Below, one piece after another: positions 2,381 through 47,017 of a DNA stretch of 47,732 nt (position 1 is the stretch's first letter; each line of letters begins with the position of its first letter). The position numbers and the translations under genes are program-made. This stretch comes from Mytilus edulis (Eukaryota). The notes below the pieces were generated by a model. It had not been told where the DNA came from and ran no database searches. It worked only from the letters and a program-made list of their open reading frames with translations. The stretch is taken from positions 20,195,575-20,243,306 of the forward strand of contig NC_092353.1 in NCBI RefSeq assembly GCF_963676685.1. The letters run 5' to 3'.

Positions 2381-2427
2381 CCCCCTATGAAATTTACTAA
2401 CCCCATACGGTCTCATAGGGGGTCACC
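2381..2427 (+). repeat. Terminal direct repeat copy L of the candidate element; it contains an internal dyad (ccccctatga ... tcataggggg)
   Basis: The 39-nt word tatgaaatttactaaccccatacggtctcatagggggtc is identical at 2386-2424 and 8986-9024. Confidence 0.8.
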
Positions 2428-2480
2428 AGGTATGATGGTCTCCACTGTTTGTGTAGTTTAAATAACCAGTACTATTTGTG

Positions 2481-2617
2481 ATATCAGGAGATTCCGGAGG
2501 AATTGAATATCAGGAGATTGAGGAAGAAATTGAATATCAGGAGATTGAGGAAGAAATTGAATATCAGAAGATTGAGAAGAAATTGAATATCAGAAGATTG
2601 TGGAAGACATTGAGTAT
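2481..2617. repeat. 27-bp tandem repeat x5 (atatcaggagattgaggaagaaattga) that overlaps the 3' end of the gene
   Basis: Direct reading of the sequence. On the minus strand it encodes the repeated peptide LLNLLIFNFF at the protein C-terminus. Confidence 0.85.
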
Positions 2618-3224
2618 CAAACGACACTTGTACAGGCAAACTTTGTGAAGATGTAGAAGCTGAAGTATTCTTGCAAAGAGTGCAAGAACAACCAGGACCA
2701 CAAACATTGCCTTTCCGCCTGCATAAACATCTGTTGTTTACACAGCCTGTTTTACAATTGCATCCTTTTGTTAGAAAAAGGACTGTATGTTCAACTCTAG
2801 AATAATTTTCTGGAGTATCCCATATTATTGACAAGCCATAATCTGGTTTCATTTCCCATCCATAGTGCATAGGATAAAGAAGTGTGACAGATGAATGTAG
2901 GGCTTTGTCCCACATGTCGGATACCCAGCAACCACGCATCCAGTGAAATTTTAATGCTTCAGCTGTAGGCATCATCTCATCTTCATTGATGATGCGATCC
3001 CAGATTTTTTCTCTGATCTTGTCGAGGAAATCTAAATGAGTTTGAAAGCTGTCTTTTTCATTAGATTTTAGAAGAATGAAAAGGTTTTTTGGTGAAGAAA
3101 TGTTTTCAGGAAATGCTGTTCTGTGTTTCAAGAAGTATAGTGTACCAATGAGTCTGTAAAAGGCCAAAAGACCATTGGGAGTATTTTCAGAAATTCTGTA
3201 CCTGTTACAAAATGGCAGTGTTTC
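2484..3224 (-). CDS. Segment 8 (C-terminal): tesmin/TSO1-type CXC cysteine-rich domain (CNCKTGCVNNRCLCRRKGNVCGPGCSCTLCKN, nt ~2673-2765), followed by a Ser/Gln-rich tract and the 27-bp repeat peptide
   Basis: The Cys spacing C-x-C-x3-C-x4-C-x-C-x6-C-x3-C-x-C-x2-C matches the CXC/CRC consensus. A strong acceptor tttttgacaactttag sits at 3225-3240 on the minus strand, and the frame is open from 3224. Confidence 0.45.
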   Translation of the reverse strand, partial: ETLPFCNRYRISENTPNGLLAFYRLIGTLYFLKHRTAFPENISSPKNLFILLKSNEKDSFQTHLDFLDKIREKIWDRIINEDEMMPTAEALKFHWMRGCWVSDMWDKALHSSVTLLYPMHYGWEMKPDYGLSIIWDTPENYSRVEHTVLFLTKGCNCKTGCVNNRCLCRRKGNVCGPGCSCTLCKNTSASTSSQSLPVQVSFDTQCLPQSSDIQFLLNLLIFNFFLNLLIFNFFLNLLIFNSSGIS

Positions 3225-3727
3225 CTAAAGTTGTCAAAAATTATTCTTTTAGTAAATCCTCTGAAGAAAGAGAGATAGTCACAGCCAGATAGAATGAAAA
3301 GAGTTTGTAAGCATTTATGAAGGTGTTGAATATTTTGTAACAAGAGATCAGTGGCTATCTCACAGCTTAATGCGTTCATGTCCAGGAATTTTTTTTCGAA
3401 TTTGCTGTCCTTTAGTTGAATGAAAATAGTTTTATTTTTAAGAGAATCTGCAGACATAATCAGTGGTAAACCAACAAAACAAACATCAGTATCAGGACTA
3501 TAAATCAAAATATTCAAACAAGGAGATGCGGAGGCATGCAACCATACTCTGCTGTCACTTTCTTCATGATTGCCATTAGCCTTTGAATATTCAAATATTT
3601 CTCCTTCTAGAACACAGATGGCCTTGTCCTTGTTGTTACCTTCAAAACCCCCTGCTGTTACAAAAACAAAATCATGTGTCTTTGAAAGTTCTAAAAATTT
3701 AACTGAAAGATACTGTATAAGCTTTCT
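3128..3727 (-). CDS. Segment 7 (…SPDTDVCFVGLP…ILSGCDYLSFFRGF…)
   Basis: The open frame extends upstream of the listed Met to 3727. It shares a frame with segment 6. A GTAAGA donor at 3878 and an AG at 3727/3726 could define a 153-nt intron that joins them in phase. Confidence 0.35.
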   Translation of the reverse strand, partial: RKLIQYLSVKFLELSKTHDFVFVTAGGFEGNNKDKAICVLEGEIFEYSKANGNHEESDSRVWLHASASPCLNILIYSPDTDVCFVGLPLIMSADSLKNKTIFIQLKDSKFEKKFLDMNALSCEIATDLLLQNIQHLHKCLQTLFILSGCDYLSFFRGFTKRIIFDNFRKHCHFVTGTEFLKILPMVFWPFTDSLVHYTS

Positions 3728-3874
3728 TTAGTTTTGTCTGTTGAAAAGAAACTTTTGCCAGTCAGAAGGAAGAGGGGTTGAATCAGAAATAGATATTGAG
3801 TGAAATTTCAATATGATGCTGGTGACCTAGATCTCTGCGTGCACGTTCCACATTTTTTGGGCTAGGACCATTTC

Positions 3875-4516
3875 TTACAGGATCATAAAAAAGAACATGT
3901 ATTTCAGAAGCATTGTACCGTGTATAGAAATTGAGCACCCATCTGTCGAATAAGAAACTGGCATATTGAAGAAAAAAACATGATAACCAAGTGGACGAGA
4001 ATTGATGATGAACATTCCCTCCAAAATAATACCAGTTGTATTAGAATTTGTAAAGGAAAGGCTGTCTGTGTATGAAGAAGAGTATAGAGATTTGAAGAGG
4101 TTTACAACACCAGATTTTTCACCTTTAATTGGTAGTTCATCAGCAGTACATATAGCTCGAGGCAGTTTATTTAATTGATGCAATTCTTCCACAGGCTTTT
4201 CTAATGTTTTTGAATAAGCCAATTGCTTTCTTAAACAGTGAATAACAGTTTTATTGTCTTGTAGTTCCTTTTTTTGTTGTTGGTTGTTTTTTGTAATGAT
4301 TGTAGAAAATATTTTTAGATTTCTTCTTTTTCTAGGAACTTTTTTATTTTTAAGAACTACACAATTGATAAAACTTTTAAAATCCTCCTCTCCATATTTT
4401 CTGTAGTTGAGCATGTCTGATGAAATGTTTGGTGCACATATTTCTCCGGTAAATATCTGGTGTAATTTTGTATTGGTTTCATTTGTAAATAAATACGATG
4501 TGTCTAGACTTTTCAT
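3875..4516 (-). CDS. Segment 6: contains the basic NLS-like stretch KNKKVPRKRRNLK
   Basis: It is in the same frame as segment 5 and separated from it only by a single in-frame TAA (4604-4606). This suggests a nonsense mutation rather than an indel. Confidence 0.4.
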   Translation of the reverse strand: MKSLDTSYLFTNETNTKLHQIFTGEICAPNISSDMLNYRKYGEEDFKSFINCVVLKNKKVPRKRRNLKIFSTIITKNNQQQKKELQDNKTVIHCLRKQLAYSKTLEKPVEELHQLNKLPRAICTADELPIKGEKSGVVNLFKSLYSSSYTDSLSFTNSNTTGIILEGMFIINSRPLGYHVFFFNMPVSYSTDGCSISIHGTMLLKYMFFFMIL

Positions 4517-4603
4517 GTATTCCTGGATGTTTTTCTCATCATTTTGTCTGATAGAAATTTCCCCAATGGTTGAATTTTGATGCTTAATTTTAAGCTGTTT
4601 TTT

Positions 4604-4969
4604 TTAATTTTGTAAGACTTTTGCTCTGAAAGGTAATGATAAGCATGTAGAAGCTAATGACTGTTTTGTGGTTGAATTCAGGGCTTGTTTGGCTGGCAAA
4701 TTAATTTGCATTTCATGTGCTTCACAGTTTAAATCAGTGCCAGTGATGGACACTGCAAATGCCCCTAATGAGAAGAAATCTAAAATAGGTTGGGGAAAGG
4801 TCAACAAGTCTGCTAAATGATAAGGTACAAGTTTAAGATATAGAGGTCTGTCAAAAGCATGAAAGAGAGGACATATCATTTTCAAGGACGCCATTCTTAG
4901 GTTCCAGTTCCTCGATCTAATGTAAATATACAGAGCAAAGTAGGAAAGGAAATCAGTGTGTATAAAGTT
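4604..4969 (-). CDS. Segment 5: continuation of segment 4 once the MITE and one TSD copy are removed in silico
   Basis: Reading ...ETFRFWD(N) through the TSD and straight into NFIHTDFLSYFALYIYIRSRNWNLRMASLKM... gives no stop and the same frame as ORF 4604..4894. Confidence 0.45.
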   Translation of the reverse strand, partial: NFIHTDFLSYFALYIYIRSRNWNLRMASLKMICPLFHAFDRPLYLKLVPYHLADLLTFPQPILDFFSLGAFAVSITGTDLNCEAHEMQINLPAKQALNSTTKQSLASTCLSLPFRAKVLQN

Positions 4970-4980
4970 GTCCCAAAATC

Positions 4981-5361
4981 AATCTAATTAAAAACCGATC
5001 TCTCATCGCTCCTGTTTCTGATATGTCGCGTGGGAGATCTAACGAAACCGGCTTTGAGGTCACATGTGAGTGAACTAAAAGTTATGAATTTATAAAGATA
5101 TGCAAATAAGTTGACGACCTATTAATAAGCCAATCAAAAAAGTTTATGAATTATTTTGACTGACGATTTCGTCGTAAATAAAATGAGTTACATCCCTTTG
5201 CCTAACGTTAAACTTCCAAGATCGTGTAAGACTCAATTTCATTGGTCGAAAAAGACACACCTACGAGGTCACTCACATGTGACCTCAAAGCGGGTTTCGT
5301 TAGATCTCCCACGCGACATATCAGAAACAGGAGCGATGAGAGATCGGTTTTTAATTAGATT
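4981..5361. mobile_element. Nested foldback MITE (381 bp). It has ~92-bp TIRs (AATCTAATTAAAAACCGATCTCTC...GGTCACATGTGAGTGA) around a ~190-bp core, and is flanked by the 11-bp TSD GTCCCAAAATC (4970-4980 and 5362-5372)
   Basis: The arms 4981-5075 and 5266-5361 are reverse complements with a single mismatch. The direct repeat abuts both ends perfectly. The insertion sits inside the element gene ORF. Confidence 0.8.
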
Positions 5362-6231
5362 GTCCCAAAATCTGAAAGTTTCATCGTTTTCTCTCTTTTT
5401 GGAACGCCAGAGTTTGAAATCAGAATCTGAATTAAGATGTGATGTAAATGTTTGTAATAAGGAAAAAAAGGAAGCCTCATCTAAGAACTCATTTTCATTG
5501 AAGGAAGCATTGATGTTTGAAAAAAGAGATAGGAAATCATTATGACCTTCTTGGTACATCTTAAGTTGATGTCTAGAAAGAGCCTCCCAAGCCTGCAACA
5601 AGAAATTATGAACCAGAGTAAATCTTGTACATTCTGTCAAACATTTTAATCTGGAACCAGCATGAAGAAGGTTAGCTATATCTTTTAGACCTGCCTCATA
5701 ATATATCTTCATTAATACAGGTTGGACATTTTTCAATAAATGCCAGTCACCAGGATAAATCAAAAGCCACTTTAATGCATCTCCATGCTCAAATTTTATT
5801 TTCATTAGTGTGTCATAGGATTTTCCATCGCCAACTAATACTACATGTTCAACATGTTTTCCCACTTGCATTTTTGAATGTAATAAATTTAAAACTTTTA
5901 ACACTGTATCTTTGTCATCAGACTTCTCATCTAGCACTGCAACAAAATATGTTTTGGACTTTTCAGGAGAAACACTTTCATTTGATAGAGAGAGAAAGTA
6001 TTTAATACCATGTTTAGACAACTTGTCATCTATAGTTAATGCTGTTTTGAATTGGTTCATACAGTTGAAAGTCAGCATGTCATTTTGGAATGATTCCCAA
6101 GACTTTTTTTCATCTTCTGACATTATAAAGTTATCAAAAGTTAAGTCAGAGTAAATATTTTGTTTAAGGATTGATGGTTTTCCTATATGGTCAAATGGTT
6201 CATATAAGTTCTTTAATAGTTCTGAAGACAT
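5362..6231 (-). CDS. Segment 4: central conserved-looking core (…VAVLDEKSDDKD…VVLVGDGKSYDTLMKIK…LIYPGDWHLLKN…); possibly a catalytic or nuclease domain, but unclassified
   Basis: In the track the ORF runs 5269..6231, but its last 31 codons are encoded by the inserted MITE arm. The host part ends at the TSD (5362-5372). Confidence 0.45.
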
Positions 6232-6243
6232 GTTTCTCTTACT

Positions 6244-6573
6244 TTACCTGATATGTGATGTTTCTGAATACTTTTTGTAGTGAGAATTGTCAAGATTTGG
6301 AATTGTGTCTAATATATCATTTTTAACTGGTGAACTGTCACAGCTTGAAGAAATTGAATTTGTATTTTCACCTTGTTGGATACATTTTGTAGAAATTTCT
6401 GTGTTTGAAGTTGAAATGACACTTGATGAAGTGGGAATTACATTAGAAGAAGTGAAAAATTCACTTGATGTAAGAATTTCACTGGATAAAGTGAGAATTT
6501 CCCTGGAAGAAGTGGACATTTCACTGGTGGAAGAACTATTAAGCAATGTTGTAAGTGGGTCAGTGGTTTCCAA
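6244..6573 (-). CDS. Segment 3: Ser/Thr-rich low-complexity linker with internal peptide repeats (TSSxEILT)
   Basis: 109-aa ORF immediately upstream of segment 4. The antisense ORF 6287..6643 is the mirror image of the same repeat. Confidence 0.3.
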   Translation of the reverse strand: METTDPLTTLLNSSSTSEMSTSSREILTLSSEILTSSEFFTSSNVIPTSSSVISTSNTEISTKCIQQGENTNSISSSCDSSPVKNDILDTIPNLDNSHYKKYSETSHIR

Positions 6574-6779
6574 TATAGAATTTTCAGATGATGAATTTGT
6601 AACAGAATGTAGTAGAGTTTCAGGTAGGGGCTCTACACTCTGAACAGATGTGCCATGAAACCCAGAATTTGATTTACCAGCTTTAACTGAAGAATGAACT
6701 TGGTTTTTATCAATGTTGTCATAAGATCCAATAGCAAATGATTTGAAAGGAGTTGATTCTGTAGTATTGTTTTGCTCGA

Positions 6780-7298
6780 CTACATCAGATAAAAAAAACG
6801 TTTATGTGTATCTTTTGAGACACAAATACCAAATCTAGATAAAATTGCAAGGAAGTCTGTAGAAGAGTTTGAGAATTTGTCTGCAGTGTCAGTTATAAGC
6901 ATATGTAGTGGTTGGGTGCATGCATTGTTTTGAGTATGAAATATAGAACTTAAAATAAATAACCTTTGTAGAAGTCTAGACCTGAAAAAAATGTTCTCTT
7001 CTGGATGTGGTATGAAATGAGTTTTTATTTGAAGTAAATCGATAGGCATGTCTTTTTCCTCTGCTGCTGTTGCTGTTATAAAATACATGTATACAAAATT
7101 CCACAGGACAGGGTCAATTTTTTTAATTTCTGTCACAAAGTCAAACTTTGCTATGTCTTGTTGAATATTGGTTTGTTTTAAAGAGGTGTAATCAGAAACA
7201 CTCTGTTTTAAGTCTGACACTATGTTTTCAATATTTAAATTTTTATTGTGATCCAATTTGGATTCACATTCAGTGTTTTGGTTACTTTTTTTTACCAT
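6780..7298 (-). CDS. Segment 2 of the element gene
   Basis: 172-aa ORF that is co-linear with its neighbours. The gap to segment 1 is compatible with a short intron or a frameshift. Confidence 0.3.
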   Translation of the reverse strand: MVKKSNQNTECESKLDHNKNLNIENIVSDLKQSVSDYTSLKQTNIQQDIAKFDFVTEIKKIDPVLWNFVYMYFITATAAEEKDMPIDLLQIKTHFIPHPEENIFFRSRLLQRLFILSSIFHTQNNACTQPLHMLITDTADKFSNSSTDFLAILSRFGICVSKDTHKRFFYLM

Positions 7299-7534
7299 TT
7301 GTCAGAATAGCATTATAAGCACACTTTGTCATATCCATACCTGTTTTATAAACATTCTTCCAGATTTTCTAGTTTTTTCTGAAGTATATTCAGACATTGT
7401 GTTGCCAAAACTCAGTTTTAACATGTTAAATAACCAGCGTGTGTTGTGAATAAAGATATTTTTGTTTTTGATACCTAATTGGTCTAAATGTAACAAATAG
7501 GTGGAATAAAAAGTTGATAGCATTACAGGTTTAT

Positions 7535-8128
7535 CTACTTTAAACTCATTGTGAACATGAAACATTTTTTTTTTAAACACAACATATCAGCATAACTTTC
7601 ATTACTAATGTCATGTTCAAACTGACTTAGATTATGAAGTTCATTGTCTATAGAATTTGTCACATGGCCTCTTTGTGATACTTGATTAAATTTGTTATAA
7701 CAATACATACACATGACTGGTTTTGTGGAGTTTTTAGATGTTTCATCAAATTCATCCAAAGAAGTGAGAATATTGAATTGTGTATCTGAAATATAAACCT
7801 GTCTGCCAGTAATAGTTTTATCACATGCAATGCAAATATCCTGAAACCTGCTGTCTTTTTTTATCCATTTACAATAGTGTTGATGACATAATGAAATGCT
7901 GAAATTACTGTCTGTAGATGTATCTAAATCTATGTTGAAAATTTTATAGAATAAATTAGTTTCAAAGGTTTTGATTTTTGTGTTGTGTATGCTGCTATTC
8001 CTGTAAGTACAAAAGGGCAAAAAACATGGTAAATCATATGAAACTGAACTTGTATTTAACTTGCGTTTAACTTTGGCAGGTGGACCATCTTCTGGAATCA
8101 TTTGTTGTTGTTGAAATTTTCTTTTCAT
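7535..8128 (-). CDS. Segment 1 (N-terminal) of the element gene: basic NLS-like PAKVKRKL, then Cys/His clusters (CHQHYC...CIAC, CMYC)
   Basis: 197-aa ORF in the six-frame track, first in a co-linear minus-strand series. The C-x4-C-x12-C-x2-C spacing is typical of a zinc finger. Confidence 0.4.
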   Translation of the reverse strand: MKRKFQQQQMIPEDGPPAKVKRKLNTSSVSYDLPCFLPFCTYRNSSIHNTKIKTFETNLFYKIFNIDLDTSTDSNFSISLCHQHYCKWIKKDSRFQDICIACDKTITGRQVYISDTQFNILTSLDEFDETSKNSTKPVMCMYCYNKFNQVSQRGHVTNSIDNELHNLSQFEHDISNESYADMLCLKKKCFMFTMSLK

Positions 8129-8982
8129 TTTTAATTCGCATCTTTTGCAAATGCAGTCCTTCTCTGTAATGTTGTACAGATTACATACAAATGAACAGAA
8201 CTCTGGTAAGGTTTTCTTTTTTTTGTTGGAGGTGAATGTATGTAGAGGAAGGTAATTTGTTAATACAACAAGGGCCAGGTGCTTTCTCTGGATGTACAGA
8301 CGGGCAGTGTGACGATATACCTGGCATAATTACAGTATTTACTTCCAATTTAAGCCAAAAAAGGAAAAAAATCAATATTATATATTGAGTGATGTTAATC
8401 ATGTGAATTGCTGAGTGATTTGAGGTCAAATTAGCCTACACAAATCGTATATAATTTGTTTGTAGTCTACACAGATAATGGCCTCTTACGCTAGGTGAAA
8501 CGGAAGATGACGTCACTTCGGTGGCGACACTAATAATAAATCATAACGGTAAAATGATGGGTTGAATTTTCGGAAATTTGAAAGATAAGTTTCGGGACTT
8601 TAATATCAAGTTAAAGTTATTAAGTGAAGCTTGGATACGCAAACGTCAAATTAGCAGAAATTACTCCAGATCAGAAGGTTGAAAATGTCTGTTTTGTTAC
8701 ATGGTTAGTTGGGAGTCAATTTTGATTCTTTTTTCAAAGAAAATTGACAATTGAATTATTAAAGAAGCATTATCATATATTTGACAAGAAATACACATTT
8801 TTTTCAGGTTCAAGACAAAACATAAAGTTAGTAAATATTAGTTTTCCTAAATCTTTATTTTCCCGGAATATTTTTCTGAAAGTAAACTGCAGCGCCCTCA
8901 AATTACGTCCCCCTGCTATTGTTGCTGATAGAGCTTGACGACAACGGCCGTATCGAAGGACTTGCTTTCCAACTGTATGAAA

Positions 8983-9027
8983 TTTACTAACCCCATACGG
9001 TCTCATAGGGGGTCTCCATGTGACGAC
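8983..9027 (+). repeat. Terminal direct repeat copy R of the candidate element
   Basis: Same 39-nt word as at 2386-2424, in the same orientation and 6.6 kb away. Confidence 0.8.
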
Positions 9028-9840
9028 GTTAAACCAATCACAACTTGATAATTTACCTGCGGTGCGATAATGTTGAAGATTGTTGCAAGATGTCACGTTT
9101 AGTGAAACATGCTTGTTAATCAAATGTTACACAGTCCTGAAATGATATATAGTATCAGTTGCATTGTTCCACCTCATCCCTACAATATTTACTGGGGTGT
9201 CGTTGTCTATACAACCTTCTTTAGTGGCTATTTGACACAACTTCGGACTATCTGATTAACAAGATCTCAGATTAAATCCCCCATACTAGTATACAGAAAG
9301 TTGTCGATTTACGGCAACACGATAGTTAGTCTGGAAAACTAGATAAAATGTTGTCGACGTACAAACCGTTGTATTAAATATGTGTAAAAACTATGATTCA
9401 GGTTAAAAAGTTTCAAAATTAAGGCATGTTAAATGAAGGAAGAGTAAGTGGTACCAAATAGAACTACCTTTAAATGGTTTGTCGAGAGTTGACTTGTAGG
9501 GTCGTTCGGATTCCCGAACCAAACAATCTTGTGGCATCTCTGTCATCCTCATGTTTCTCAACTTGTGAAAAATAATGTCCGCAGTTAATTGTTCTTAGGT
9601 AGTCATTCAGGCTTGGTTAATTGGTATATTAAAAATAAAGTCACAAACTGTTCTGATTGGTGTTGTAGCTGAGTCTTTTTTACGATATGGTGGGTTATAC
9701 TAGTGTACTCTGTGGTTTGCACGTACATTCATTTTCATCAACTTTTTCTTGATCGACGATTATATAGATATAAGAAGATGTGGTATGAGTGCCTTTGAAA
9801 CAACTCTTCATCCAAGTCACAGTTTATAAAAGTTAATTAA

Positions 9841-10481
9841 GGGCATACGATACAGTTACAGGGGAGGTAATGACGTTGCTAACGTAAAATGTTATTTTCG
9901 CGACGTCAAACTGTGACCTATCGGGAAAAGATGCATTTTTCGACTGATTTTTATCATTCAAACTGATTTAATTTGAAAACGATTGCATGGACCTTTTTTT
10001 AAAACGACATTTTGTTTCATTTTCCAGGGAAATTATGTGGACCAAATTTTATAAAACTGTAAATAGTGCATTTTTTTTAATTTTGATAAATGTACAGCAA
10101 AAAATGACTTTTTTTTCTCAATTCATGACCATTTGATAACTATGAGTAATTTCTGAATAAAAAATTCAGAAATTTTTAGAAGACTTAATACATATACAAA
10201 GATTACAAATTATTTAACAAAAAACAATTTGTGTTTATCTTTTAAAACAAACAAATTATGTCTTTCTTTCGAAAGGAAAAATACGGCCACAACTCCGCAT
10301 TTTGAGCAAATATACAAAATTTCGACCTCATTTAACTCAGAAAGTAGCACATGGAGGTATATATTTTTTTTATTACATATTTGATTTAATCAGGAAAAAA
10401 TAGCCTATATGGAAATTTTCATCAAACTGTAAATACAGGATCAAAACTGTATCGTATGCCCTTAACACGGAGCCTTGGCTC
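9841..10481. mobile_element. MITE of 641 bp with perfect 17-bp TIRs (GGGCATACGATACAGTT / AACTGTATCGTATGCCC), flanked by TTAA on both sides (9837-9840 and 10482-10485)
   Basis: Direct reading of the sequence. The interior is AT-rich and non-coding. A TTAA duplication is typical of piggyBac-like elements, and of some PIF-like ones. Confidence 0.7.
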
Positions 10482-10723
10482 ACACTGAACAGCAAGCTAT
10501 AAAGGGCCCCTAAAATGACTAGCGTAAACCCACTCAAACGGAAAAACCAACGCTCTAATCTAAATGAAAATCGAGAACCGCCAATTTAATTAGGTCTGTG
10601 ATTTTGTTTCTGAAGTAGAATATGTGGCAAAGTGATATATATGGTAGAAAAATCAACGACTTATTGACACTCTTAATCCTCTTGCAGCCGACCGTTTTTC
10701 AAGGTTGCATTTCATATTGAACA

Positions 10724-10860
10724 GATATATCATGTTAAGGAGGGGTATTTGCGAAAAATACCAGTCGAGAGAATGTTAAATTTCACGAGCCGTAAGGCGA
10801 GGGAAATTCATTCTCAAGACTGGTATTTTTCGCAAATACCCCTCAATAACATGATATATC
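10724..10860. repeat. Hairpin or foldback: ~52-bp inverted arms with a ~33-bp loop
   Basis: gatatatcatgttaaggaggggtatttgcgaaaaataccagtcgagagaatg is the near reverse complement of cattctcaagactggtatttttcgcaaatacccctcaataacatgatatatc. The related word ggcaaatacc recurs at 10935-10995. Confidence 0.6.
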
Positions 10861-11984
10861 TGTTTAATTACACCGAATGTTAATGTACTAAAACGCATTG
10901 ATGATCGTTACAAGCGTCCAGTCGGATAGAGTATTTTTTGGCAAATACCACGGCAGAGAGGGTAAAAAAGGCATATCCTTTTAGCAAATACCCCGGCGGC
11001 GTTAAAAATGAACGATTTTCATTTGATAACAGTAAATTGGTGAAAAATACACTGGCTATTAACCAATCAAAACCCCGGATTCTTACATAAGGTGTAATTA
11101 GACGTAAAATACGACAGCTCGACGTCTGTGACGTAAATGCTAAACAACGACGTCACGACATAATGACCGTTACATTTGGGACCCATTGAAGTAAAACATA
11201 ATGATGTTTAATCCTCGGTCTTTTAATTGAAAGAATAACAGCACTGATGAGAAGCTTGCATAAATTTAACCATGGACATATGTGTCCCTCCGGCAGCAAG
11301 AGGGTAAAGAAACTAATGTGGATATTTTCAAAGGCCTTATTTGAACATTTTATAATCAGGTTTTTGAATTCCGCCATAGCATCATCAGTTCATCACAGAA
11401 TATAAGATAACTTGGTATAACTATGTAATCGAAATTAATGGACTTAGCAGTGTGTTAACACTGTCAACTATTGATAGGATAAAACAACAATTTTAAACAT
11501 GAAAGTACAAGTTAGTGCTTATTTTGTTACAGGTACGAAAATTTAGTGATATTTTGACTATAACATTAAATAAAGGCATCGCCGGGTAGTATACCGCTGT
11601 TCGAAAGTCATAAATCGACTGATAAAAAATATCTGGGCTACAAACTAACACTGAGGTAAACACATCAACTATAAGAGGAAAACAACGAAACAACAGAAAC
11701 ACTGAGGTGCAACAAAAAAACAAACGATAATGCAACACACACAGAGAAACAAACTATGATATATAACATCTACAATTTGCCTGACTTGGTACAGGACATT
11801 CTAAGACAAACTGGTGTGTTGAACCTAGTTTTGCGGCTAGCCAAACCTTGCATTTTTATTTCAATGTTAATATAACACTAATATGACAACATTACATGAC
11901 AGGACTCAAAACAAACAAATGCAAGAACATTCTGGACAGAAAAATACACAGATATACAATACAATAGGACATTTCCAATAGTAA

Positions 11985-12083
11985 AGGTACATGTACCAGG
12001 CTTATAATTTAATATACCATACGCGCGTTTCAGATCCAGATTTGATAAAGAAAGACAAACAAGTACAAAGTTGAAGAGCATTG
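11985..12083 (-). repeat. Inverted copy of the hammerhead-bearing repeat unit, with the ribozyme core deleted
   Basis: On the minus strand it reads caatgctcttcaactttgtacttgtttgtc...tctgaaacgcgcgtatggtatattaaattataagcctggtaca. This aligns to the 30608-30745 unit, but the word agcgtcactgatgagtcttatgtagac is missing. Confidence 0.5.
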
Positions 12084-13114
12084 ATGTTACCCTGTATACC
12101 ACATTGCCTCACATTCTCATTAAGAAAAAATTCACACACCTAATTAAATGGGCATTCAAAAAATCAGAATGTGAATATATATGTTCAAACTCTGTTAGGT
12201 CATTTTTTAGTAGCAATAAAAAAAACTATGTTAATTGGACATGCTTTGATACTATATATGCCCTTGAATTTTTACTAGATAACATTTTTGTTCGCTTTGG
12301 GGATTCCGTATATCGTCAGATTATCGGAATTCCAATGGGGACTAACTGTGCACCACTTATTGCGGACCTGTTTTTGTATTGTTATGAGTTACAATTTATG
12401 ACAATAATAAGCAAACACCCATCGAAACAACATCTGATAAACAAATTTAATAATACTTTTAGATATTTGGATGATATTTTGGCTATCAATAATGACGACT
12501 TCAGTATGTATATTAATGCAATTTATCCTGTTGAACTTACTTTAAATAAAGCTAATACTAACAATGACCACTGCCCTTTTCTCGATCTTTATATCTATAT
12601 CACTAATGGAAAGCTGAATACTAAAATTTCTGATAAAAGGGATGATTTTTCATTTCCTATCGTTAATTATCCGTTTTTAGATGGTGACGTTCCCTTGTCA
12701 CCATCTTACGGTGTTTATATATCTCAACTTGTACGATTCGCTCGTGTATGTAATAATGTTTGAGATTTTAACGAGAGAAATTTATGTATTACTGAAAAAT
12801 TATTACACCAGGGTTTTCGATATCACAAACTAGTCAAAACATTTACTAAATTTTATCATCGGTATAAAGACATCATTCGTAAATATAGCTCAACATGCAG
12901 ACTTCTAATACGTTCAGGTATTTCACATCCAATTTTTTATGGAAATATTCTTTATAAAGCACAACGGTGTCAGTATTCACCTCAGAAACTTACAAAACCT
13001 TTGAATAGACTTCTTAAGAAGGGATATAATTACGATACTGTTGTCAAGTCATTAAAGATTGCATATTTTGGCGTTAATATTGAGTCACTGATAAGGTCTT
13101 TGCATCGGAACTAA
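12071..13114 (+). pseudogene. 5'-truncated reverse transcriptase fragment: RT motif B (GIPMGTNCAPLIADLFL) and motif C (YLDDIL), then a thumb-like C-terminal region. One in-frame TGA at 12761-12763
   Basis: ORF 12071..12763 continues in the same frame after the single TGA down to the TAA at 13112-13114, giving ~347 codons. The N-terminus, including motif A, is absent. The ORF starts exactly at the junction word gttgaagagcattg. Confidence 0.7.
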
Positions 13115-32318: not shown

Positions 32319-33740
32319 TGTCATCGCAACTCCTCTCAAACCACACAACAGAATTTCACGAAACCTTTTCAGATATTAAGGACATACTCTGTAGTTGTGC
32401 ATATCGACGGGAAATTGCGATTCAATTTTTTTTCTAGGAGTTACGCCCCTTTGAACTTATTTACTTTAATGTACTACTGCAACAGTTTGTCATCGCAACT
32501 CCTCTGAAACTACACAACAGAATTTCACGAAACCTTTTCAGATAATAAGGACATATTCTGTAGTTGTGCATATCGACGGGAAATTGCGATTCAATTTTTT
32601 TTCTAGGAGTTACGCCCCTTTGAACTTATTTACTTTAATGTACTACTGCAACAGTTTGTCATCGCAACTCCTCTCAAACCACACAACAGAATTTCACGAA
32701 ACCTTTTCAGATAATAAGGACATATTCTGTAGTTGTGCATATCGATGGGAAATTGCGATTCAATTTTTTTTCTAGGAGTTACGCCCCTTTGAACTTATTT
32801 ACTTTAATGTACTACTGCAACAGTTTGTCATCGCAACTCCTCTCAAACCACAAAACAGAATTTCACGAAATCTTTTCAGATAATAAGGACATACTCTGTA
32901 GTTGTGCATATCGACGGGAAATTGCGATTCAATTTTTTTTTCTAGGAGTTACGCCCCTTTGAACTTATTTACTTTAATGTACTACTGCAACAGTTTGTCA
33001 TCGCAACTCCTCTCAAACCACACAACAGAATTTCACGAAACCTTTTCAGATAATAAGGACATACTCTGTAGTTGTGCATATCGACGGGAAATTGCGATTC
33101 AATTTATTTTCTAGGAGTTACGTCCTTTTGAACTTATTATACCCCACGCAACGAAGTTCCGGAGGGTATAATTTTTTGACCCGTCCGTCCGTCCGTCCGT
33201 CAGTCCGTCCGTCCGTCCGTCCGTCCGTCAGTCCGTCCGTCCGTCCGTCAGTCCGTCCGTCAGTCCTGTTTCTTGTCATCGCAACTCCTCTCAAACCACA
33301 CAACAGAATTTCACGAAACCTTTTTAGATGAAAAGGACATACTATGTAGTTGTGCATATCGACAGGAAATTACGATTCAATTTTTTTTATAAGAGTTACG
33401 CCCCTTTGAACTTATTTGCTTAATGTACTACTGCAACAGTTTGTCATCGCAACTCCTCTGAAACTACACAACAGAATTTCACGAAACCTTTTTAGATAAT
33501 AAGGACATACTATGTAGATGTGCATTTCGACAGGAAATTACGATTCAATTTTTTTTCTAGGAGTTACCCCCCTTTGAACTTATTTACTTTATTGTACTAC
33601 TGCAACAGTTTGTCATCGCAACTCCTCTGAAACTACACAACAGAATTTCATGTAATTTTGTAGATAATAAGGACATACTATGTTGATGTGCATATTGACA
33701 GGAAATTATTATTCAATATTTTTTCTTATACAATTTTTTT
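32319..33740 (+). repeat. 169-bp satellite array of ~8 units, interrupted at 33139-33275 by a second head
   Basis: The tcatcgcaac word recurs at 32321, 32490, 32659, 32828, 32998, 33276, 33444 and 33612, at periods of 168-170. The ORFs 32271..33331 are periodic artefacts. Confidence 0.85.
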
Positions 33741-34689: not shown

Positions 34690-35800
34690 TGAAAATTTCT
34701 GGATCCGCTACTGGGGGTAGGGTGACCCTAGGGACTTCCCCTACATTTCATTTTATTTGTTATATTGTCCCATACATGAATATATATGGTTTAGGGGGGG
34801 GGGGATCTCATTGGTTTCTAAGTTCTCAAACAGGAGGGGTAGGGTGACCCCAGGGACTCCCCCTATATTTCATTTAATTAGTTATATTGGCCCATACATG
34901 AATATATATTGTATCGGGGTGGGGATCTTGACCGTTTCCAAGTTCTTAAACAGGAGGGTTGGGGTGACCACAGGGACTTCCCCTATATTTCATTTGATTT
35001 GTTATATTGTCCCATACATGAGTATATATGGTTTAGGGGTGAGGATCTTGACCATTTCCAAGTTCTCAAACAGGAGGGTGTACAGTGACCCCAGGGACGC
35101 CCCCTATCTTTCATTTGAACTGTTATATTGTCCCGTACATGAATATATATGGTTAATGGTTGGGGATCTCAACGGGTTTCAAATTCTCAAACAGGAGGGG
35201 TGGGGTGACCCAAGGGACTCCCTCTATATTTAATCTGATTTGTTATATTGTCCCATACATGAATATATATGGTTTAAGGTTGGGGATCTCGAACATTTTT
35301 AAATTCTAAAACAGGAGGGTTGGGGTGACCCCCAGCGACTCTTCCTATATTTCATTTGATTTTTCATATTGTCACAAACATGAATATACATGGTTAAAGG
35401 GTGTGGATCTCGACCGTTTCCAAGTTCTCAAACAGGAGGGTGGGGTAACTCTATGGACTCCCCCTATATTTCATTATATTGTCCTATACTTGAATATATG
35501 CAGGGGCAGATTCAGTTCGGGGGGGGGGGGGGGGGGGGGGGGCGCGTGCACCCCCCATAAATTCGCAAAGCATGGGTTGTTCTCAGCTTAAAGAATATTC
35601 CGATAATTTTACCTCAATATTTTTTTAGCCTCGCTCTGCTCGGAGAAAATTTAAGTTAGCACCCCTCCTAACCTAAAATCCTGGATCTGCTCCTCATATG
35701 GTTTAGGGGTGGGAGCTCGACCGTTTCCAAGTTATTAAACAGGAGGGGGTGGAGTGGCCCAAAGGATGCCACCTATATATCATATGATTTACTTACATTC
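34690..35800. repeat. ~120-bp satellite x9 (ggggt(a/g)gggtgaccccagggactccccctatatttcat...cccatacatgaatatatatggtttagggg...gtttccaagttctcaaacaggag). A degenerate leading copy sits at 34560-34690
   Basis: Units start at ~34705, 34836, 34957, 35078, 35199, 35318, 35436 and 35740. The ORFs 34584..35591 are periodic artefacts. Confidence 0.85.
35519..35542 (+). repeat. Homopolymer (G)24 followed by cgcgtgcacccccc
   Basis: Direct reading of the sequence. It lies inside a satellite unit; shorter G11 runs are at 34793-34803. Confidence 0.9.
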
Positions 35801-38871: not shown

Positions 38872-39124
38872 CTAAAAAAAATATTGTACATATTACTAAA
38901 CTGTAATAAATTGTAACACAGAAATCTTTTTACAACAAACCAAATAAAAAATATTAAATACAATCTTTCTTAGACTCATTTATTAATCCTGCTGTTACTT
39001 TGATCAAATCTTTATGACAGTTTCAATGAGACTATTTAATAAAATAACAGTGTAACAATGTTATTCCTGCCTTACTAACCATGTTTGATTTAAAAGTCAC
39101 AAAAGGTTATACTACTGGTATCAC

Positions 39125-39300
39125 ATAAACTAAACTTTATCAATGATCAGCAACATCAAGGTCAAGGTCAGATAAACCCTGGAAGACAGAAATGTACAAC
39201 TTGCAATCATTTAATACATCAAATATAGTTAACCTATTGATTATAGTATTTGAATATCAGACAAAAATAAGAAAACTTAATAGCCAATGAACCAAGAAAA
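39125..39300. repeat. Copy of the ggtcaaggtca ~150-bp family; a further partial copy is at 39630-39700
   Basis: caacatcaaggtcaaggtcagataaaccc...catcaaatatagttaacctattgattatagtatttgaatatcagacaaaaataag. Confidence 0.5.
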
Positions 39301-39989
39301 TGATGTCAATGTTAAATGGGAGGGGGGGGGAGGAGTTTTTTTCGGGACGTCAGGATCAGATGTTTTTAAGCTCAGGATTTCAGGATTGATCCTTTTGGGA
39401 TCCAGGAATTCTTTTATTGAATTTTGAATTTAAATTTCTTTAAATTTGGGACCTCAGGATGTTTTTTAAGCCCAGGATTTCTGGATAAGGACCCCTCCAG
39501 CCCCTCCTCTTAGATGAAACCTGCCAAACTGACATGTACCTCTTTCCATAACATTCCATTTTATATTTAATACACAACATCAAGTTGACCCTTTGCTTAT
39601 AGAATCTGAAAAAAAAACCTAAACACAAAACTTTAACCTTAATCACTGACTCTTGAAATGAGGTTAAGGTCAGGTGAACCATGTCTGATCTGCCTATGTA
39701 TAGTGCAGATGAGATAAATTTTTGAACATCCCCACTTTTTAACTAGTCTATAAAGACATTGCTGATATAAACCTGTATGTAAAACAAATACATTCTTGCC
39801 ACCACTATAATAATTGGAACCTATTGAATCTATATTCATGTGACTTTTAGTATGTTATAAATCAAATATGAGAATTGGAGTCTTAATCGGTGAACATGAA
39901 TTTGACTGTTTGACAGCTAATGCCCCTTTAAAGAATGAATGTGTTCTTAAACTTAAAAACTTAAATATTTTAAATTGGACATTTACCTA

Positions 39990-41235
39990 TTATGGTCCAA
40001 TATCCAAAATCTAAATACATGGTAAGATTCAGCATATCAAAGAACCCCAAGGATTCAATTTTTGTTGATATCAAACAAAGTTTAATTTTGGACCACGATT
40101 TGGACAAACTTGAAAAACTGGCCCCATAAGCAAAAATCTTAATACAAGTTTAGATTCAGCAAATCAAAAACTCCAAGGATTCAATTTTTGTTGAAATCAA
40201 ACAAAGTTTAATTTTGGACCTTGATTTGGACCAACTTGAAAACTTGGCCCATATTCAAAAATCTTAGTACATGTTTAGATTCACCATATTAAAGAACCCC
40301 AAGAATTCAATTTTTGTTGAAATCAAACAAAGTTTAATTTTGGACCCTGATTTGGACCAACTTGAAAACTGGGCCCATAATCAAAAATCTTAGTACATGT
40401 TTAGATTCAGCATATCAAAGAACCCCAAGAATTCAAATTTTGTTGAAATCAAACAAAGTTTAATTTTGGACCCTGATTTGGACCAACTTGAAAACTGGGC
40501 CCATAATCAAAAATCTAAGTACATGTCTAGATTCAGCATATCAAAGAACCCCAAGAATTCAATTTTTGTTAAAATCAAACTAAGTTTAATTTTGGACCCT
40601 TTGGACCTTAATGTAGACCAATTTGAAAACGGGACCAAAAATTAAGAATCTACATACACAGTTAGATTAGGGATATCAAAGAACCCCAATTATTCAATTT
40701 TTGATGAAATAAAACGAAGTTTCTGACCCAGAATGAATGTGTTCTTAAACTTAAAAACTTGAAAACTTGGCCCATAATCAAAATTAGATTCACCATATTA
40801 AAGAACCCCAAGAATTCAATTTTTGTTGAAATCAAACAAAGTTTAATTTTGGACCCTGATTTGGACCAACTTGAAAACTGGGCCCATAATCAAAAATCTT
40901 AGTACATGTTTAGATTCAGCATATCAAAGAACCCCAAGAATTCAAATTTTGTTGAAATTAAACAAAGTTTAATTTTGGACCCTGATTTGGACCAACTTGA
41001 AAACTAGGCCCATAATCAAAAATCTAAGTACATGTTTAGATTCAGCATATCAAAGAACCCCAAGAATTCAATTTTTGTTAAAATCAAACTAAGTTTAATT
41101 TTGGATCCATTGGACCTTAATGTAGACCAATTTGAAAACGGGACCAAAAATTAAGAATCTACATACACAGTTAGATTAGGGATATCAAAGAACCCCAATT
41201 ATTCAATTTTTGATGAAATAAAACAAAGTTTAATT
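39990..41235. repeat. ~125-bp satellite array of ~10 units (…ttagattcagcatatcaaagaaccccaagaattcaatttttgttgaaatcaaacaaagtttaattttggaccctgatttggaccaacttgaaaactgggcccataatcaaaaatct…). It has an internal ~480-bp higher-order duplication: 40260-40735 is repeated at 40760-41230
   Basis: Periods of 125-127 were measured between successive cagcatatcaaag words. This is the same family as the arrays at 23471-23990 and 25357-25810. The ORF 40397..40645 is an artefact. Confidence 0.85.
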
Positions 41236-41578
41236 TTGGACCCTTTGGGCCCCTGATTCCTAAACTGTTGGGACCAAAACTCCCAAAATCAATCCCAACC
41301 TTCCTTTTGTGGTCATAAACCTTGTGTTTAAATTTCATAGATTTCTATTTACTTAAACTTGTTTTTTTTTTACTTTTGATAGTTTGGAAAAATGTTTTAC
41401 ATTGTTTTAAATAAAATATGAGAATTTGAGTCAAATCAGTGACCATGAATTTGGCAGCTAGTGCCCCTTTAAGAAATATATATATATTAAAGTGTTTAAG
41501 CACAATATTTTCTTGATACTTGGGTCTTCTAAGTGAGGATAGAAATAAGGTGCCCAACATGATGACAGTATAATATTT

Positions 41579-42560
41579 GTTCAAACAGAACAGTTGGGGT
41601 AAGTATGGACACAACATTTAAGCTTGATTCAGCTCTGAATTTGGATTGTGATTAAATATTTGACACAGCATATGTTTCTGACACAGAATGAATGTGGTCT
41701 AAGAACTTTTTTTTTTTTAAATTTGACATTTACCTTTTGGACCCCTTTGACCTCTATGTGGACCAATATGATATCAGGGCCCAAAAATCAAAATCTAAAT
41801 ACATGGTTAGATTCAGCATATCAAAGAACCTCAATAATTCAATTTTTGATAAAATGAAACAAAGTTAAATTTTGGACCCTTTGGACCTTAATGTAGACCA
41901 AATTTGAAAACGGGACCAAAAATCAAAAATCTAAATACACAGTTATATTCAGCGTATCAATGAACCCCAATGATTTAATTTTTGATGCCATCAAATAAAG
42001 TTTAATTTCAGACCCTTTAAACCTCAATGTGAATCAATTTCAAAATGGGGCCAAAAATCCAAAACTTAATACATTGTTAAATTCAGCATATTAAAGAACC
42101 CCAAAAATTCAAAAATATAATCCCATTGAAATTGGTCAAGAAATAAGTTATTTACACAAAGTATTAGAAAAGTATTGTTTTTAGCCCCTTAATTATTCCT
42201 AATCAGTTAGGGCCATTACCCCCAAAATCGATCCCAACCTTCCTTTTTCGGTATGGAACCTTGTTGTACAATTTCAAAAAGATCCATACACTTACAAGTT
42301 ATTGTCTGAAAATTTATAAAAATGCTTATTTTGACCCGTTTAAAGGCCCTTATTTCCTAAACTGTTGGGACCATAAACCTCAAAATCAATTCCAACCTTT
42401 CTTTTGTGGTCTCAAACCTTGTGTTTAAATTTCAAAGAGATCCATTTACTTAAAAAGCAAAGTTACTGTTTGTAAACTTAATGTCTTTTCAGTCGACGCA
42501 GGCAACGACATGATACCAACATACGACCACAAAAATTTTTGGTGGTTGTATAAAAAATTA
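41579..42560 (+). mobile_element. Composite non-autonomous element, copy 3: a partial head matching 22783-22900, ~130-bp units, ~120-bp cccaaaatcgatcccaaccttcc units, and the tail cagtcgacgcaggcaacgacatgataccaacatacgaccacaaaaatttttggtggttgtataaaaaatt
   Basis: Co-linear with copies 1 and 2, but more diverged. Confidence 0.45.
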
Positions 42561-43914
42561 AGACCAATTTGACACTAAACGTATTTAAAACAGAGGTTAG
42601 ATGCTTGACAATAAAGGGCATTCCTTCTCTTCTAAATGACAATTGAGTCCTTGATGGGAGTTGCTGACTAATTTGAGGAGTAATATCTAACTCTGAAATC
42701 GCTCTCAAGCTATCAATTTTATTACATATTCATATAAACAAAATGTGGTATGAGTGCCAATAAGACACAATGTTTAAAAAGATTAATATTATTGGTCAAA
42801 GTACAGCCTTCATTTCAAACAGGAACACCAACAATTTAATCTTTATAAAAGATTAGAAATGAGAAACATATCCATAAATAAATGCACTACTTAAAATTCT
42901 AGGATAAATTGTATTATAAAAAATAAAACAAACCTGATTCTTCAAACAACATTTTGTAAACAATAGTCCCCAACCCAGAATAATATCCAGGAGTGAGATA
43001 ATAACACTGATCAATCTATCAGTCCTCTGTTGAACTGTTAAAGGTACATTATTATGGAACCCTTCACACATGAATAAACAGCCTCAGGTGTGATCTTGTT
43101 CCCGAGTAGTTTTTACAGAAATCAAAATACCTACTCAGTAAAAAAAAAGTCAGATCATAAGTAAGTGTTATAACTTCATGGATGAGCGCCTTTTTGTAGT
43201 TAAACAGATACAAGTGTGGACACACATAAATGTCTTACTAGAGTCTTTGCTTTGCCTAAATAATGATATTACTGTGAATTGACTGCATTTGTTGCTCAAC
43301 TTATAGCAGGTCATTTAAAATTGTGACCCAGTTGCAATTTGTTTTATCAAATCAGCCTTTTCAAATCGTATGAAATTTAACCCAATTCAGAATTGCCATA
43401 AAAAATAAAGTCAAGACATCAGAGTGCAAGGTGAGAATATAAAGGATACTTTCAATTCTATAAAAATTTTATTTCTTTTATCTTTAAAACTTTTTTTTAT
43501 CATTATTTATTTCTATAAAACTTTAAACTCCACTTTAATGGTCATATAAAATTGTATCTTAAAAAGTTTCTATGCAAATTGTCATTGTGAAGAGTCATTC
43601 AAAAAGGTAATGAGAATTTTAGAATTGCTATAAAAATGTCCAAACTTAGCTTTTATAACTTTTTCTTATAAAAAGTCTTCTATATTCCTAAGAATAAGAC
43701 ACCAGTTTAAATTAAAACAGATTCTATTCAGTGAAACATATGTAAAATTACAATAAGATTTTAATAAGTTTCCATGGGAGTTAATTTAAAATCCCTGATC
43801 TTTTGAAATATTGTTCTTATCTCCCCTTAAAACTTTAAGAGAAAATGTTAAAGCTTAAAGATAAACAACAAGAATGTGTCCAAAGCACACAGATGCCCAA
43901 CTTGCACTATCCTT

Positions 43915-44815
43915 TTCCATGTTCCATGGACTGAAACTCCCACTTTCATTTTCTATGTATAGTGAACCGTGAAATTGGGGTCAAAAGTCTAATTTGGCAT
44001 TAAAATTAGAAAGATCATATCATAAGCAACAAGTGTACTAAGTTTCAAGTTGATTGGAATTCAGCTTCATCAAAAACTTCCTTGACCAAAAACTTTAACC
44101 TGAAACTCCCCCTTTCATTTTCTATGTTCAGTGGACCGTGAAATTGGGGTCAAAAGTCTAACTTGACTTTAAAATTAGAAAGATCATATCATAAGCAGCA
44201 AGTGTACTAAGTTTCAAGTTGATTGGACTTCAGCTTCATCAAAAACTACCTTGACTAAGTTTCAAGTTGATTGGAATTCAGCTTCATCAAAAACTTCCTT
44301 GACCAAAAACTTTAACCTGAAACTCCCCCTTTCATTTTCTATGTTCAGTGGACCGTGAAATTGGGGTCAAAAGTCTAACTTGACTTTAAAATTAGAAAGA
44401 TCATATCATAAGCAGCAAGTGTACTAAGTTTCAAGTTGATTGGACTTCAGCTTCATCAAAAACTACCTTGACCAAAAACTTTAACCTGAAACTCCCACTT
44501 TCATTTTCTATGTTCAGTGGACCGTGAAATTTGGGTCAAAAGTCTAATTTGGCATTAAAATTAGAAAGATCTTATCATAAGCAACAAGTGTACTAAGTTT
44601 CAAGTTGATTGGACTTCAGCTTCATCAAAAACTACCTTGACCAAAAACTTTAACCTGAAACTCCCCCTTTCATTTTCTATGTTCAGTGGACCGTGAAATT
44701 GGGGTCAAAAGTCTAATTTGGCATTAAAATTAGAAAGATCATATCATAAGCAACAAGTGTACTAAGTTTGAAGTTGATTGGACTTCAGCTTCATCAAAAA
44801 CTACCTTAAAACTTT
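43915..44815 (-). repeat. 190-bp satellite x5 (…ctcccactttcattttctatgttcagtggaccgtgaaattggggtcaaaagtctaatttggcattaaaattagaaagatcatatcataagcaacaagtgtactaagtttcaagttgattgga(c/a)ttcagcttcatcaaaaact…)
   Basis: Units start at ~43915, 44095, 44285 (with a 45-bp internal duplication), 44470 and 44650. Confidence 0.85.
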
Positions 44816-44905
44816 AACCTGAACGGACGGAAGAACGGACGCACGGACGAACGGACGCACAGACCAAAAAACATAATGCTCCTCTGGGGCATAAAAAAGA
44901 AAATG
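44816..44905 (-). repeat. (GGACG)n microsatellite plus an inverted carrier head (reverse complement cttttttatgccccagaggagcattatgttttttggtc + (CGTCC)n)
   Basis: The reverse complement aligns to the heads at 32233-32318 and 33139-33275 (ggagg(g)tataatgttttt(t)g(a)c + CGTCC repeats). Confidence 0.6.
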
Positions 44906-45056
44906 TGTATGATTGCAAATGAGACAACTCTCCACCAGAGACCAAGTGAAATAGAAGTTAGATGTAATTATAAGTATTTTAGTATGAATTCAAAGTAAGC
45001 TATGTAGCATGTGCAGAAAAACACAAATTTTAGAAGAAATATTAGAAAATCTTAAA

Positions 45057-46720: not shown

Positions 46721-46790
46721 CTGCAACTTAAATCTGAGAAACATAATATGCCTTAAGCCTTAAGTAGAGTCAACATGAATTAATTTCGAA

Positions 46791-46898
46791 ATCAATATCA
46801 AATAGATAAATCAATATCAAATAGATAAATCAATATCAAATAGATAAATCAATATCAAATAGATAAATCAATATCAAATAGATAAATCAATATCAATA
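46791..46898. repeat. 19-bp microsatellite x5.5 (atcaatatcaaatagataa)
   Basis: Direct reading of the sequence. Confidence 0.85.
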
Positions 46899-46906
46899 AG
46901 ACTTAC

Positions 46907-47017
46907 CACCTTCAAATAAATTAAAACCCATGTCTGTATCACTTTCACTTTCTTCCCTTTCCAGAATAGATGTATTTCTTGCGTTATATGCATATTTTTC
47001 CAGCAGTACCGGTTTCT
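46907..47017 (-). CDS. Exon encoding a ribosomal-stalk-P-protein-like acidic tail (…LLEKYAYNARNTSILEREESESDTDMGFNLFEGG), paralogue A
   Basis: The acceptor ctctttacag is at 47018-47027 on the minus strand and the donor G|GTAAG at 46906. ORF 46893..47093 in the track. Phase 1 at both ends. Confidence 0.35.

Follow-up and report, generated by a model that had tools for sequence, protein, structure and literature searches.

Mutator-like elements (MULEs) generate target-site duplications of 8–11 bp, mostly of 9 bp and in some groups of 9–11 bp, and their arms are typically long (PMC6446971). They have been found in every mollusc genome surveyed, and elements of the Merlin type occur in bivalves (PMC10294476). 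Here we describe a miniature inverted-repeat transposable element (MITE) from the blue mussel Mytilus edulis, which lies in a stretch of 47,732 nucleotides (RefSeq assembly GCF_963676685.1, contig NC_092353.1, positions 20,195,575 to 20,243,306 of the forward strand) that is referred to as the window throughout. Everything considered, it is very probable that a non-autonomous cut-and-paste transposon (class II, with terminal inverted repeats), a MITE of 381–383 bp with near-perfect arms of about 93 bp, integrated within coding sequence in one copy of a DUF6589-family repeat, and that a MITE insertion as such took place is hardly to be doubted. The element has terminal inverted repeats, a target-site duplication that was checked against an empty site, and a small size without coding sequence for a transposase, which are among the properties by which MITEs are recognized; of the several dispersed copies with common termini that are likewise expected of a MITE, one more was found. 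The parts of the element are:

4981–5361, no strand: the MITE (foldback element), 381 bp, with symmetric ends AATCTAATT...AATTAGATT, delimited by its inverted repeat, its fold, its second copy and its absence from the paralogous locus L001
4980–5362: the block common to both element copies, 383 bp, CAATC...GATTG
4981–5073, plus strand: left terminal inverted repeat, 93 bp, with a single mismatch (position 70) to the right arm
5269–5361, minus strand: right terminal inverted repeat, 93 bp
5074–5268, no strand: AT-rich non-coding core, 195 bp, with stops in six frames

The foldback of 381 bp that the original prediction had placed at 4981–5361 was confirmed there. Positions 1–93 of the element are the reverse complement of positions 289–381, with the lone mismatch at position 70, and the left arm carries a palindrome, TCACATGTGA, at its inner end. 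In the output of a repeat finder the pairing runs further inward (4980–5111 with 5231–5362, 132 nt at 86%), the weaker complementarity of the arms reaching approximately 40 bp into the core. Folded as single-stranded DNA, the element has a free energy of −126 kcal/mol, the mean of shuffled sequences being −35 kcal/mol (z = −24.6). Internal tandem repeats are absent, and on six-frame translation stop codons appear in every frame over the 381–383 bp. Peptides derived from the element had no match at E ≤ 10 among 5.8 billion predicted proteins, and a search of the element against Rfam returned only MIR8562, with 42.5 bits versus a gathering score of 211, which is a generic match to a long hairpin.

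The element is bracketed by a direct repeat. The word GTCCCAAAATC stands on both flanks, as had been predicted, but the identity actually comprises 13 nt, TTGTCCCAAAATC, at 4968–4980 and 5360–5372, where the right-hand TT is also formed by the final two bases of the inverted repeat; the 11 identical nucleotides are thus present, although a duplication of exactly 11 bp is not thereby proved. The boundaries of the insertion are located to within one base per side, and the two copies of the duplication are:

4970–4980: left copy in the 11-bp reading (minimum 4971–4979, 9 bp; maximum identity 4968–4980, 13 bp)
5362–5372: right copy in the 11-bp reading (minimum 5363–5371; maximum identity 5360–5372)

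The element plus one copy of the duplication, together 392 bp, interrupts an open reading frame (ORF) on the minus strand, of which the two parts are:

5373–6231, minus strand: upstream part of the interrupted DUF6589-family ORF, residues 1–286 of the restored 411 amino acids
4604–4969, minus strand: downstream part of the interrupted ORF, ending at a nonsense codon (4604–4606) that is Leu in the paralogue

When 4981–5372 is removed in silico, the ORFs 5269–6231 and 4604–4894 become a single ORF of 411 amino acids, in which the junction reads ...ETFRFWDN|FIHTDFLSYFALYIYIRSRNWNLRMASLKM... (ETFRFWDN|FIHTDFLSYF). For the restored protein 26 relatives were found, the best of which, P0001, is 42% identical over the full length (E = 8e-93). 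In an alignment of 12 homologues there are zero gaps at the junction FWDN|FIHTDF, and W289, D296, and Y300 around it are nearly invariant. The Pfam family DUF6589 (PF20231) was recognized in the relatives P0001 (48.4 bits) and P0005 (40.2 bits) above the threshold of 27 bits, the restored ORF of the window itself falling short of E ≤ 1. It had been proposed that both ORFs were once continuous and that the last 31 codons of the 320-residue ORF 5269–6231 are an artefact of the MITE. Both proposals are borne out: residue 290 is the D of FWD, and the final 30 residues and the stop codon are encoded by the element. For gene annotation this means that the models at this place are artefacts, the 320-residue ORF having a MITE-encoded tail and the ORF of 96 residues being a fragment.

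The original prediction had asked for an empty site in a paralogous copy of the large element, and such a site exists in another M. edulis locus (L001, GCA_905397895.1), which was reached through the protein P0019. Positions 6325–12490 of L001 are a second copy of the 6.5-kb host repeat, with flanks unrelated to those of the window. The two host copies align in BLAST segments of 95–97% identity and are 97.7% identical in aligned columns (Kimura two-parameter distance 0.023, 34 indel events). The two segments have in common, on the L001 side, precisely the 13-nt target word, which is present there once only, at 9915–9927 (GATTTTGGAAC / GATTTTGGAACAA, one substitution), and no MITE is found at this target site. 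The ORF 9728–11866 of L001 (712 amino acids) runs uninterrupted through the site (...ETFRFWNNFIHTDFLSYFALYISIRSRNWNLRMASLKM...). Because this empty-site copy exists, the features seen in the window are not due to chance. The idea that the gene model of P0019 begins at MASLKM on account of the MITE was rejected, L001 being free of the element.

A second copy of the element was found with a 29-nt end pattern, which was scanned in metagenome contigs, in bacterial and archaeal genomes, and in viral contigs. The only match in the metagenome contigs, with both ends present, was L002 (ENA ORXM01087750, 1050 bp); the bacterial and archaeal genomes and the viral contigs gave none. At 114–494 of L002 there is an element of 381 bp with 378 of 381 positions identical to the copy in the window and with the same termini. 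Even the arm mismatch is the same, and therefore it was already present in the common ancestor of both copies. The flanks (...GTATAAAAAGC | GGATCATATTT...) are unlike those in the window, from which it follows that the element is mobile and that GTCCCAAAATC as a whole does not belong to it, contrary to what the original prediction had named as a possible refutation.

L002 is, however, most likely a chimeric assembly. Its right third holds the start of PBP2 (mrdA, from approximately nt 812), with 65% identity to the protein of a Saprospiraceae metagenome-assembled genome, and preceded from approximately nt 613 by mreD, of which there are only the last ~45 residues (profile positions 125–168 of 169). 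The first 24 nt of the left flank match window positions 27247–27270 in 23 of 24 positions. It is this combination of a bacterial gene that is truncated, a left flank like mussel DNA, the lack of a flanking repeat or target duplication, and a coverage of 4x that suggests a chimera. The junction between mussel and bacterial DNA lies within ~100 bp of the element end. As a measure of the duplication length L002 was therefore rejected, and it is used here only for the sequence and the ends of the element.

The length of the duplication can be read in more than one way. Both element copies have a C at −1 and a G at +1, and this pair lengthens the inverted repeat. Subtraction of the shared block of 383 bp from the period of 392 bp gives a minimum of 9 bp for the duplication, the maximum identity being 13 bp. 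Accordingly, the element may measure 383 bp and its duplication 9 bp, TCCCAAAAT (4971–4979 / 5363–5371), or else 381 and 11 bp, or 379 and 13 bp, the ends being asymmetric in this last case. Each of these parses needs four chance base matches (of the window flank with the element end, or of the L002 flank with the duplication in the window), so that the sequences at hand cannot choose between them, and the empty site fits the 9-bp and the 11-bp parse equally well. As judged from these sequences the duplication is of 9–13 bp, and of 9 or 11 bp if the ends are symmetric. With the modal value of MULEs as a guide we lean slightly towards 9 bp. That the duplication is exactly 11 bp, with C(−1) and G(+1) of the second copy reflecting a target preference (G-N9-C) or chance, has somewhat less than even chances: the ends of the 381-bp parse are likewise perfectly symmetric, the count of chance matches is no higher, and duplications of 9–11 bp are made by some MULE groups, but the modal MULE value is 9 bp (PMC6446971), and the C/G pair that extends the inverted repeat is present in both independent copies. 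The statement that an 11-bp duplication is unusually long could not be upheld, as 9 and 11 bp are both inside the range of 8–11 bp for Mutator-like elements (PMC6446971).

Because of the duplication of 9–11 bp and the long arms, a Mutator-like transposase is, by analogy, probably the mobilizing enzyme, an assignment that we make with modest confidence. The values at this locus (9 or 11 bp; arms of 93 bp near-perfect and of 132 bp at 86%) are those of MULEs. The transposase, supplied in trans, would bind both arms and cut the target ...AAGTT-G-TCCCAAAAT-C-TGAAAG... with a stagger of 9 or 11 bp; the element ends would then be joined to the target, and gap repair would duplicate the latter. The insertion truncates the ORF after residue 290 and adds the 30 element-encoded residues and the stop. 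Several points weigh against this picture. Only two copies of the element are known, the second of which is on the probable chimera L002 and has no target duplication, so that the length estimate rests on one insertion, with an ambiguous exact value (9, 11, at most 13 bp). To our knowledge the ends CAATC/AATC fit no superfamily motif. Our searches, in collections that hold no whole Mytilus genomes, found no autonomous element with CAATCTAATTAAAAACC... ends, and the window contains no transposase, from which, together with the lack of coding capacity, mobilization in trans would follow. The 9-bp parse would also suit Merlin, as the duplications of Merlin elements are of 8–9 bp in the Wicker classification. 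A duplication of at least 9 bp rules out hAT, P, Novosib, and Zisupton elements, which make duplications of 8 bp, and likewise every superfamily in which they do not exceed 6 bp. The end motif GGAAGG... of Merlin elements is absent from the Mytilus element. That the same insertion was the work of a non-Mutator superfamily, namely of an undescribed family making 11-bp duplications or, given a duplication of 9 bp, of Merlin, is a doubtful alternative, to which the missing partner transposase, the terminal bases without a known MULE motif, and the presence of Merlin elements in bivalves (PMC10294476) lend some weight, but arms of 93 bp combined with a duplication of 9–11 bp are classic for MULEs (PMC6446971). 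It is very improbable that L002 is real and that a mussel MITE is located in, or shared with, a Saprospiraceae-like bacterium, beside mreD and mrdA, or, in a milder variant, that the family always makes 11-bp duplications with a transposase from outside the known superfamilies; if L002 were not a chimera, a eukaryotic transposon would have moved into, or be shared with, a bacterium. The chances are close to negligible that no transposition was involved and that a palindrome was inserted locally in the course of repair or of a template switch, the junctions having microhomology, or that the assembly is in error. In favor of this it can be said that the duplication is seen at one insertion only; the complete, 99.2% identical copy with identical termini and unrelated flanks in L002 effectively refutes it, and the perfect flanking repeat of 13 bp and the precise excision relative to the empty site also speak against it.

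Returning to the insertion of a MITE by a probably Mutator-like transposase, its age can be judged relative to the host. The copies of the element differ by 0.8% and those of the host by 2.3%, which agrees with an arrival of the element after the host copies had separated. Together with the empty site in L001 and the gapless DUF6589 homologues, this supports the earlier claim that the MITE is younger than the host gene: judged by sequence, the insertion is recent, the host repeat copies having diverged before the MITE came in. The family has probably been active recently. Further copies were found neither elsewhere in the window nor in 22 kb of M. edulis and 50 kb of M. coruscus DNA. The bivalve DNA sampled via homologues of the host protein did not contain the element either; repeats in common with the window were seen in just two of the loci sampled in this way, L083 and L084 of M. 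coruscus, the others being from other taxa. A description of this MITE family was not found in the literature searched, and the family can now be flagged in the annotation of Mytilus genomes. Although the case leaves the existing knowledge of transposition unchanged, it is a clean worked example of a recent MITE in another repeat, with a filled site, an empty site, and a second copy.

The host of the insertion is itself a repeat:

2426–8977, minus strand: dispersed host repeat, 6.5 kb, with a degraded long ORF; second copy at L001 6325–12490

The host ORF has a Cys-rich N-terminus and a DUF6589 region, and its C-terminal part matches Tesmin-like CXC weakly; beyond this, Pfam yielded nothing apart from DUF6589 in the relatives. 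Frameshifts are at different places in the two copies, and the copy in the window has, besides the nonsense codon at 4604–4606, a 12-bp deletion. By these signs the host copies are decaying members of a dispersed repeat, and for this reason the term "nested" that was applied to the insertion is justified. A link of the host to the P transposase structure was not reproduced, neither Foldseek on the PDB nor a profile search of PDB sequences giving a match, and it is taken as no more than a lead. Identical direct repeats of 37 bp, TGAAATTTACTAACCCCATACGGTCTCATAGGGGGTC, bracket the host repeat at 2389–2425 and 8978–9014 and begin on both sides exactly where the homology to L001 ends. The copy in L001 has no flanking repeat, and terminal inverted repeats were not found in the host. 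The 37-bp repeat may be a target duplication of very great length, or else the host was inserted into a palindromic unit that is itself repeated. A palindrome at 2172–2257 (40 + 40 nt, 93% complementary, 6-nt loop) has arms resembling the 37-bp word (GGGTTAGTAAAATTCATAGGGG motif), a likeness that suggests that small palindromes of this kind form a repeat family.

The window as a whole has a G+C content of 33% and is rich in satellites and short ORF fragments. For the proteins encoded in it the nearest relatives are those of Mytilus coruscus and M. edulis, by which the window is recognized as mussel nuclear DNA. None of six ORFs of the window had an exact match in a protein collection. A small foldback at 10716–10868, with 60-nt arms (92% complementary), a 33-nt loop, and the ends ATTGAACAG...CTGTTTAAT, is by its structure a candidate for a second MITE of a different family. 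At 12071–12763 on the plus strand there is a reverse transcriptase-like ORF fragment (IGIPMGTNCAPL...YLDDIL), which is a member of a very large family, as 7334 of 8000 scored candidates had E ≤ 1e-20. Its closest matches (79–95% identity) are on ENA metagenome contigs of at most 2 kb, the identity to long contigs being 56–61%, and because of these matches on short contigs some marine metagenomes seem to contain mussel DNA. Dense satellite and tandem arrays are at 22300–26300, 32300–33700, 34700–35800, 39100–42500, 43900–45000, 27635–27900, and 46770–46920, with periods of ~126/135, 161, 169, 120, 31, and 19 bp, and there is a segmental duplication of ~2.1 kb (22729–23028 versus 24829–25128, 99%). 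The two members of a 68-nt inverted pair, 9766–9833 and 30986–31053, are 21 kb apart and 88% complementary; one arm matches L001 5212–5284 at 82% and therefore a dispersed repeat family flanks the region.

How does the element compare with what has been described? With bivalve MITEs such as the tandem-repeat-containing DTC84 of Donax and the pearl-like elements (PMC3879986), it shares the small size and the non-autonomous nature of these abundant DNA elements, but it differs from them in having no internal tandem repeats and much longer arms. Merlin-derived MITEs are alike if the 9-bp parse holds, whereas the 11-bp parse is excluded for them. As for MULEs, a MURA-type partner with matching ends was not identified, the CAATC/AATC terminus is not a recognized motif of theirs, and a duplication of 11 bp, if such it is, would be as long as any in their range. 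With the non-autonomous MULEs, be they MULE-derived MITEs or of the Foldback type, the Mytilus element nevertheless has in common the long arms, a duplication within 8–11 bp, the lack of coding sequence, the insertion into a gene, and the occurrence in molluscs (PMC6446971, PMC10294476).
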